A DNA stretch of 64,000 nucleotides from a virus (UHGV-0134778); one strand, 5' to 3'; positions 42,846 to 43,837 are shown, numbered from the stretch's first letter. Translations and numbers: made by a program. The notes: generated by a model from the sequence alone, not told the origin.

Positions 42846-43837
42846 GCAGACAGGATTATCGAATCCTTATATTCAAGGGTGGTCGCAACACCACCCTCCG
42901 CACCATTACGTGCTGCTGCATGTTACCATGCAGAGTAGACTATATCACCACCCATCTCAGGGGTGCTTCGCTTTTCGAGCGCCATAAGCTTGCGCCCTAC
43001 TCCCTCTCGGGATAGTCGTTGAACTACATTACCAATCATAATTGTTTGAAATATAGGTGTAAGTCTTACGGTCTTTTATTCCTTTAACAACACTAAAACT
43101 TACTCCCCACTTCTTAGCTATTTTATTTACACACAAAGCCCTACCACTAAGATCCTCGCAGATACCTATTATCTTGTGCTCACTTATCCTATTAGAGGTT
43201 GGCACTTTTCTAAAGTTAAATTCTTTAGAAATATCTGGGTATACTGAGCCATTCTTTATACCACTTACAAGTGGTTGATTGACACCAAACATTTCACAAA
43301 TGTCTTTTACCCTTGCACCTTGCTCTAACAGCCTACATATTTCAAGAGCAGTGGCATCATCTAGGGACCTGTATTTATTGACATAGTCCTTTTTAAGTCC
43401 CATTTCATGAGCGTGATGTGTGTTTTCCTCAGGCGTTGTCCACTCAAGGTTCCATGCGGCGTTATTCAACTTATTGCCATCCAGGTGGTTTACTTGAGTT
43501 TTCACACTGGGGTTATCATTATCTACAAAAGTCATAGCAATAACTCTGTGGACTAGCACTTGGAACTTTTTCCCGCCCTCGCACAAAGTGACCATAGCAT
43601 AGCCAGTCTTTTTCTGCACATTAGGATGGAGGAATTTATTAGAATACAGGCTGTAAATTCTGCCATCGTATGTAGCACAATAATGATTGTAACCTAAAAA
43701 GCCTAAATTTTTCATTTCAAACATCTCCCTACTACAGGTTCGGAAGGGTAATTATAGCTGCTGATTGTCCGTTTAGCAATCGGATTTTCCAGCAATTAAC
43801 GAAGTTATTCGACGTGCATTTCTGCACGAAGCCACTA
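42846..43837 (-). mobile_element. group I intron (approximate bounds) carrying an HNH homing endonuclease ORF
   Basis: Minus-strand RNA shows P and Q-like elements (AAUUGCUGGAAAAUCC, AAUCAGCAGC) 5' of the ORF and R/S elements (GUUCAACGACUA, GAUAUAGUC) 3' of it. Confidence 0.7.
43029..43724 (-). CDS. HNH homing endonuclease (intron-encoded)
   Basis: 231 aa; HRVIAMTFV...VNHLDGNKLNNAAWNLEWTTPEENTHH is a classic HNH motif; C-terminal HTH-like region. Confidence 0.75.
   Translation of the reverse strand: MFEMKNLGFLGYNHYCATYDGRIYSLYSNKFLHPNVQKKTGYAMVTLCEGGKKFQVLVHRVIAMTFVDNDNPSVKTQVNHLDGNKLNNAAWNLEWTTPEENTHHAHEMGLKKDYVNKYRSLDDATALEICRLLEQGARVKDICEMFGVNQPLVSGIKNGSVYPDISKEFNFRKVPTSNRISEHKIIGICEDLSGRALCVNKIAKKWGVSFSVVKGIKDRKTYTYISNNYDW

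Follow-up and report, generated by a model that had tools for sequence, protein, structure and literature searches.

Does the phage UHGV-0134778 make its large terminase subunit (TerL) from one interrupted gene, or from two genes that lie on either side of an endonuclease gene? The question is raised by nucleotides 42846-43837 of the window (the whole stretch of DNA analysed, 64,000 nt), which exactly fill the space between two terminase reading frames. The source genome is a Vequintavirus, an rV5-like E. coli myophage, and the split terminase is found on its minus strand. We consider it very probable that TerL is interrupted by a mobile phage group I intron of the IA type carrying an HNH gene; its splicing and homing, and the promoter use and masking proposed for the HNH gene, are what we infer from the sequence.

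The terminase locus and its interruption

The gene order around the locus is as follows.

45269-44587, minus strand: spanins
44587-43838, minus strand: ORF of the TerL N-terminal part, 249 aa, Pfam Terminase_6N (5e-17)
43724-43029, minus strand: HNH ORF in its longest form, Pfam HNH_3
42845-42060, minus strand: ORF of the TerL C-terminal part, Pfam Terminase_6C
41957-40401, minus strand: portal gene

ORF calls and Pfam matches thus agree with the predicted layout of three ORFs, all on the minus strand, with the HNH ORF between the two TerL parts. The N-terminal part contains a Walker A motif (GGAAGSGKS) and a Walker B motif (MVCFDE). With a 2.65-kb query around the locus, 127 phage records match (95-99% identity), YP-6, PDX, HdK5 and rV5 being among the top matches. 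Upstream of the spanin-TerL block, at 45692-46503 (minus strand), there are seven tRNA genes (Pro, Met, Thr, an odd one, Ser, Tyr, Arg), and rV5 has a similar cluster. The odd tRNA-like gene (45936-46034, minus strand, 97-99 nt) has an extra arm of ~26 nt and the anticodon loop UUUUUAA; it scores 35.5 bits against the Rfam tRNA model, and ARAGORN assigns it a 4-base anticodon. The corresponding position in rV5, between tRNA-Thr and tRNA-Ser, has no annotated tRNA.

The uninterrupted TerL of phage B9-1 comprises 515 residues, and its gene aligns with the window except for a single extra block of 980 nt in the window. The limits of exon 1 were set from the ORF, the Terminase_6N match, the end of the alignment to the intron-less B9-1 and the translation of the joined exons. 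The resulting parts are:

43845-44587, minus strand: TerL exon 1, codons 1-247 and the first two bases of Ile248, with Walker A and Walker B
42865-43844, minus strand: group I intron, 980 nt, precisely missing from B9-1
42865, minus strand: terminal guanosine of the intron (omega-G), followed by the exon-2 A; placed by the group I rule and the P1/P10 geometry
42060-42864, minus strand: TerL exon 2 including the stop codon, in which the ATPase-domain profile ends and the RNase H-like nuclease domain is encoded (Pfam Terminase_6C)

When 44587-43845 is joined to 42864-42060, the product is a 515-aa TerL identical to that of B9-1 at 513 of 515 positions, so that the comparison of joined exons with an uninterrupted terminase, proposed as a check of the original prediction, came out in its favour. 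Upon joining, the Terminase_6N match, which in the N-part alone covers residues 25-208 (62.7 bits), reaches 25-294 (72.6 bits) and runs unbroken across the junction, with Terminase_6C matching at 394-489 (27.9 bits); the N-terminal Walker A/B ATPase and the C-terminal RNase H-like nuclease that characterize a TerL are therefore present in one polypeptide. The lengthening of the Terminase_6N match shows that the break interrupts the N-terminal domain profile, rather than separating two autonomous halves. The description of the locus as an ATPase half and a nuclease half consequently holds for the two ORFs but not as a clean split, as exon 2 still codes for the final ~45 residues of the N-terminal domain profile. 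In the PHROG 979 profile, the two TerL halves match adjoining positions, 147-373 and 380-621, leaving a gap of six positions (374-379) that agrees with FDNPVC, the six exon-2 residues absent from the C-part ORF. A search of the joined TerL against PDB sequences gave nothing at E≤0.01. By sequence comparison, TerL is a single gene split by a 980-nt insertion.

The separate ORFs, and the many GenBank records in which the TerL parts are annotated as separate proteins, would also fit a two-chain terminase whose parts are translated independently with the HNH gene not spliced out, as in the case of the Aeromonas phage Aeh1 NrdA split by mobE; non-splicing split genes do occur in phages (PMC7344957). 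For translation of the second part, however, the exon-2 ORF offers only an internal TTG, from which FDNPVC would be lost, and the sole purine-rich stretch upstream, AAGGA, lies 18 nt from this TTG. The break, moreover, falls within the conserved ATxFDNP stretch of TerL as well as within the Terminase_6N profile, and a full catalytic RNA core under compensatory evolution (see below) would be pointless if no splicing occurred. Two separately translated chains are thus very improbable. A free-standing endonuclease between two real genes was also considered, and rejected.

The interrupted gene being the preferred reading, its boundaries can be placed to the nucleotide. The intron begins with UAAAUGAUAG, with in-frame UGA and UAG stops directly after the 5' splice site (within 9 nt), and ends with ...AUAUAAGG, the last base being G. 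The intron (43844-42865) differs from the gap between the ORFs, as exon 1 ends 7 nt upstream of the stop-defined end of its ORF and exon 2 starts 19 nt upstream of the TTG chosen by the ORF finder. Exon 2 starts with AUU CGA U..., read as A/UUC GAU AAU (Ile-Phe-Asp-Asn; the slash marks the splice point here and below), and the junction in the protein is ...SFSFIGATI/FDNPVCLRDNPEYL. At the insertion site, the intron-less TerL of B9-1 has the sequence GGCGCAACAATTTTCGATAATCC. The junction originally proposed, FIGATI/LRDNPEYL, is ruled out by the alignment with the intron-less TerL; it omits FDNPVC because exon 2 was begun at the TTG picked by ORF logic, which in the uninterrupted TerL is an internal Leu codon.

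Judged from the alignment with the intron-less allele alone, the boundaries could also lie one base further 3' (ATT/AAAUG…AAGGA/TTC), in which case the last intron base would be A. In group I chemistry, the U of a U·G pair precedes the 5' cut and G is the last intron base, and this rule leads to the boundaries ACCAU/UAAAUG…AUAAGG/AUUCGAU. With these, the spliced codon is AUA (Ile) as against AUU (Ile) in the intron-less allele, a silent difference. The choice, made by rule, is supported by the sequences of the homologues: the U·G pair is invariant, all six have the G-A step at the 3' splice site, and a short P10 can be read in each copy between exon AUU(C) and the guide (GAU, GAAU or AAU). Also, the exon codon is ACC, as required for P1 pairing, where the intron-less allele has ACA.

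Fold of the intron RNA

At the gathering threshold, an Rfam search of the whole window returned tRNAs only, and RF00028 was not among the hits. With an E-value threshold, RF00028 gives two partial hits on the minus strand, at 43854-43493 (25.6 bits) and 43161-42916 (31.7 bits), as compared to the cut-off of 50; in a 1.7-kb search the two intron halves have E values of 5.5e-4 and 8.2e-6. No second intron was found in the window by Rfam at the E-value threshold. The ORF-less copy of the intron in phage VB-EcoM-WM (WM), on the other hand, is a full-length RF00028 hit (92.7 bits, E=3e-23). This copy is near-identical to the window intron outside P5-P6, where a 21-nt hairpin stands in place of window positions 43756-43025. 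The 713-nt L6 insert, containing the HNH gene, splits the match of the window copy and would explain its low score.

The secondary structure, drawn manually for the window sequence, comprises P1, P2, P3-P6, P7 (in a pseudoknot with P3), P7.1, P7.2, P8, P9, P9.1, P9.2 and the terminal G, and its elements are:

43832-43848, minus strand: P1, exon CCAU and intron UA with the internal guide UAGUGG (Rfam alignment)
43813-43828, minus strand: P2 hairpin, CGUGCA-GAAA-UGCACG; two compensatory pairs
43798-43804, minus strand: P3 5' strand, CUUCGUU, pairing with 42972-42966 (AGCGAAG); one compensatory pair, 100% paired
43759-43794, minus strand: P4-P5-P4', the classical P and Q elements, AAUUGCUGG ... 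AAUCAGCAGC (Rfam alignment); two compensatory pairs in P5
43747-43757, minus strand: P6 5' strand, CUAUAAUUACC, with 43033-43024, GGUAAUGUAG (manual pairing)
43017-43012, minus strand: P7 5' strand, GACUAU, within the R element
43011-43002, minus strand: P7.1 hairpin, CCC-GAGA-GGG
42997-42977, minus strand: P7.2 hairpin, 6-bp stem; two compensatory pairs
42972-42966, minus strand: P3 3' strand
42965-42949, minus strand: P8 hairpin, followed by J8/7
42943-42938, minus strand: P7 3' strand, AUAGUC, the S element
42933-42916, 42913-42900 and 42897-42876, minus strand: P9, P9.1 and P9.2 hairpins; nine compensatory pairs in total

All 76 pairs form in the window sequence. Several features that define a group I intron are found in it, namely P1 with a U·G wobble, the P3-P8 core, in which P3 and P7 form a pseudoknot and the P, Q, R and S elements are present, and the terminal G. 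As expected from the original prediction, the HNH ORF is flanked by these elements, with AAUUGCUGGAAA and AAUCAGCAGC upstream and GUUCAACGACUA and GAUAUAGUCU downstream. The U·G wobble of P1 (43845/43835) marks the 5' splice site, and the six P1 pairs are invariant in six homologues. In P6, a U-A pair is replaced by C-G in UAB_1 among the ORF-bearing copies, and the P6 of the ORF-less WM is different and shorter. The P7.1 and P7.2 hairpins, handled as an insertion by the Rfam alignment, lie between P7 and the P3 3' strand, an arrangement which we take to indicate the IA class, typical of phage introns.

Covariation was analyzed in six copies from three genera after removal of the L6 insert (the window, rV5, HdK5, WM, Avunavirus 24-2-1 and Justusliebigvirus UAB_1). 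Over the 13 helices and 76 pairs, 98% of the 448 cells pair. Compensatory changes are seen in 20 of the 76 pairs, as compared to 3.9±1.8 in shuffles, none of which (0/500) reaches 20, and slid controls, with the 3' partner shifted by 1-3 columns, give 0-5 compensatory pairs. The covariation, together with the RF00028 match of the ORF-less relative, supports the assignment of the insert as a group I intron. The copy of phage Av-05 was kept out of the set, its record (NC_025830.1) ending inside the P9 hairpin of the TerL intron. This record restarts in what appears to be another group I intron on the opposite strand, in which the core R and S elements are present as the reverse complement; the likely cause of the break is a misassembly at sequence that two introns have in common.

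Group I introns are not the only elements that interrupt phage genes; inteins and group II introns do so too, and inteins are present in other genes of Pectobacterium phage CB7 (PMC7344957). Read-through of an intein is barred by the two in-frame stops next to exon 1, and for a group II intron neither a reverse transcriptase nor a group II RNA match is present, RF00028 being the sole Rfam family hit. Both are already refuted by the sequence, and their probability is negligible.

The score of the window copy, below the Rfam threshold, could also be taken as a sign of a decayed, non-splicing relic in a genome that is defective or reliant on a helper. This is hardly probable, as the low score is accounted for by the L6 insert, outside of which the copy is near-identical to the one scoring 92.7 bits, every pair of the fold is intact, and the records of YP-6, PDX and ECML-10 share the architecture.

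With an intact group I intron as the preferred interpretation, splicing would proceed as follows. The pre-mRNA would fold into the ribozyme, and an external guanosine would attack after the U of the P1 U·G pair (…ACCAU/UAAAUG…). The freed exon 1 would then attack after the terminal G (…AUAAGG/AUUCGAU…), and ligation would give the continuous 515-aa TerL with ...FIGATI FDNPVC LRDNPEYL.... As active TerL would arise from splicing only, DNA packaging would depend on it. We infer splicing at the ATI/FDNP site with considerable force from the essential role of TerL and from the presence of the intron in isolated phages such as rV5. In the literature, we found no experiment on splicing at this site; the sole result that we found for the subfamily is the RT-PCR of phage CB7 at the Walker B site, discussed below.

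At 70-85% identity, the 3' part of the intron (window 42865-43024, P7-P9.2) matches segments of other phage sequences, many of which are annotated within nrdD, DNA polymerase or bnrdE genes. They are found in Vequintavirus and phi92-like phages, in SPbeta, and in Vibrio, Xanthomonas and Pseudomonas phages. The similarity suggests, at the level of sequence, a widely shared intron lineage or an exchange of 3' domains.

The endonuclease gene and its expression

The HNH ORF is located in loop L6, and the P6 3' strand includes its last Trp codon and its stop codon (UGG UAA). The features related to its expression are listed here.

43029-43715, minus strand: HNH homing endonuclease gene, 228 aa from the second ATG (MKNLGF...); the longest ORF, from 43724, has 231 aa
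43751-43779, minus strand: candidate sigma-70-type promoter of the HNH gene, TTGCTA-17-TATAAT; -35 in the P5 loop, -10 formed by the P6 5' strand
43725-43746, minus strand: possible hairpin of CUUCC (43746-43742) with the HNH ribosome-binding site GGGAG (43729-43725)

The protein matches Pfam HNH_3 (28.0 bits, cut-off 24.8), PHROG 59 'HNH endonuclease' (2.7e-50) and, over residues 11-154, I-HmuI (PDB 1U3E, E=3.6e-12), the last match bearing out the predicted HNH homing endonuclease in the intron. The beta-beta-alpha metal motif with catalytic His and Asn residues is present: the alignment with 1U3E keeps ...NHLDGNKLNN...NLEW...EEN, the residue before His being Asn here and Asp in I-HmuI, and the residues of the catalytic motif are invariant in four orthologues. 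The I-HmuI-like HNH domain is followed by two helix-turn-helix repeats (weak HTH hits). Orthologues at the same TerL codon are 98% (rV5), 81% (24-2-1) and 62% (UAB_1) identical, and all are intact. The 228-aa form is the likelier product, since the more distant orthologues (24-2-1, UAB_1) start at the second ATG and GGGAG ends 9 nt upstream of this codon (43715) in the window. I-HmuI of Bacillus phage SPO1 is the nearest solved relative and likewise an HNH endonuclease in a phage group I intron, but it comes from a DNA polymerase intron and has 174 aa, whereas the window protein (231 aa in its longest form) has an extra C-terminal helix-turn-helix repeat. By analogy with I-HmuI, the enzyme would nick or cut the intron-less TerL of co-infecting relatives at the sequence coding for ATIFDNP, and repair of the cut allele would copy the intron in (homing).

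The HNH gene may be transcribed from its own promoter, the sigma-70-type site in P5/P6, although this assignment is tentative. At the homologous site, UAB_1 has a perfect TTGACA-17-TATAAT, 24-2-1 retains TATAAT with a weak -35, and the ORF-less copies have no promoter-like site; in rV5 the site is unannotated. Over the whole window there are 29 sigma-70-type sites as against 8.7 expected, an enrichment which implies that the phage does use this promoter type; in a local 3.5-kb scan, promoter-like sites as a class are not enriched. The ribosome-binding site of the HNH gene may, in addition, be masked in the full-length precursor. The masking hairpin is predicted in the same way in three diverged copies, and its energies in three homologues are no better than those of shuffles (z of -0.11, +0.65 and -0.93), so the modelled hairpin points only weakly to masking. 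The predicted transcript start, ~7 nt downstream of the -10, falls inside CUUCC (43746-43742). Owing to the position of the HNH stop codon within the P6 3' strand, translation and ribozyme folding should exclude each other on one RNA.

It is possible, but in our opinion rather doubtful, that the endonuclease cassette brought in its own sigma-70 promoter, which now lies in the ribozyme core, with the HNH protein made only from a short non-splicing RNA and the full-length TerL precursor left untranslated in the intron and free to fold. If true, one stretch of sequence would serve as a ribozyme helix, a promoter and a translational switch.

That essential, conserved phage genes harbour group I introns with homing endonucleases is textbook knowledge. 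The td intron of T4, of the IA type with P7.1/P7.2, interrupts a conserved motif of an essential gene and has the I-TevI ORF looped out of P6; its endonuclease is expressed from an intron-internal promoter, and the ribosome-binding site is sequestered in the precursor. The TerL intron resembles it in type, in P7.1/P7.2, in the position of the ORF in P6 and in its insertion into a conserved motif of an essential gene, while the parallel in promoter and ribosome-binding site is only predicted for the TerL intron. The two differ in the endonuclease (GIY-YIG in I-TevI, HNH here) and in the host gene (thymidylate synthase and terminase, respectively). A group I intron in a terminase gene, that of Lactobacillus phage LL-H, was reportedly described by Mikkonen and Alatossava in 1995.

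Distribution and relation to known introns

The TerL intron with its HNH gene is already known, as it is annotated in rV5, the type phage of the genus. In the rV5 record (DQ832317 / NC_011041), TerL is a three-piece join, 'ORF64ABC', around ORF65, 'HNH homing endonuclease'. The accompanying paper (Kropinski et al. 2013; PMC3606486) treats the matter under the heading 'Introns in terminase', with an acknowledgement to D. Shub for assistance with the definition of the intron; it contains no intron structure, splice-site sequence or splicing experiment. The second TerL intron of rV5 lies in the same gene and at the same insertion codon as that of the window, with an HNH protein 98% identical. At the Walker B site, rV5 has an additional 318-nt ORF-less group I intron, and this site is empty in the window. 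O157 typing phage 5 is 96.8% identical in nucleotides over all 980 nt, and its match to the locus equals that of rV5 in length and score.

The same architecture as in the window is found in YP-6, PDX and ECML-10, and 14 of all 134 records with a match have the intron with its ORF. Among 60 of these 134, taken as a spread sample, the ORF-bearing intron is seen in ~6, the ORF-less intron in ~4 and an empty site in ~43; for Vequintavirus records this corresponds to ~10%, ~7% and ~80%, respectively, at ATI/FDNP. The exons of the ORF-bearing, ORF-less and intron-less alleles are ~96-98% identical. The intron with its ORF also occupies the homologous codon in two further genera, with nucleotide identities of 78% and 66%. 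Near-identical phages thus differ in whether they have the insert, in agreement with the mobile element that had been predicted, and the pattern fits homing with occasional loss of the ORF, a reading of the sequences in which homing itself is presumed.

The ORF-less form (VB-EcoM-WM, RudolfGeigy, Av-05) shares the site and the ribozyme core with the window intron and differs in length (~266 nt): in place of the 732-nt stretch in which the HNH gene, its ribosome-binding site and the promoter-like site are located, it has a short P6 hairpin, and its P5 loop is different. In the BASEL phage RudolfGeigy, TerL is annotated as a 3-piece join spanning the ORF-less copy.

The second intron site of TerL, at Walker B (MVCFD/EGTQF; window ~44161-44166, minus strand), is empty in the window. 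In relatives, it is either empty or occupied by the 318-nt ORF-less group I intron (84.9 bits) or by an intron of ~880 nt that carries an endonuclease VII-like ORF (HdK5, JES2013 and others). For phage LL12, an intron was predicted in TerL (PMC6658697); in its locus match, an insert is present at the Walker B site only, with no intron at ATI/FDNP. The CB7 intron, a TerL group I intron with an HNH gene for which splicing was shown by RT-PCR (PMC7344957), lies likewise at Walker B (FIGVD/EGTQF) and not at ATI/FDNP, where CB7 is uninterrupted.

The scientific weight of these results is small, and their practical value lies in annotation, through the exact boundaries and the structure. In many GenBank records, those of PDX, YP-6, HdK5 and phiWec193 among them, the pieces of TerL appear as proteins of their own, named 'terminase-like' or 'hypothetical'. 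Also, with two sites, each empty, ORF-less or ORF-bearing, the TerL of this phage group is a natural system for intron gain, ORF loss and homing. Two PHROG families named 'terminase large subunit', 9526 and 9453, match the N-part only and the C-part only, respectively, and may have been built from unjoined fragments of an intron-split TerL. Of the records matching the locus, eighteen are named 'Campylobacter phage' (MG0656xx), most of them ~96% identical to E. coli Vequintaviruses over the locus; at least one, C3, is flagged UNVERIFIED, and C3 is a phi92-like Justusliebigvirus. The host labels of these records look unreliable.
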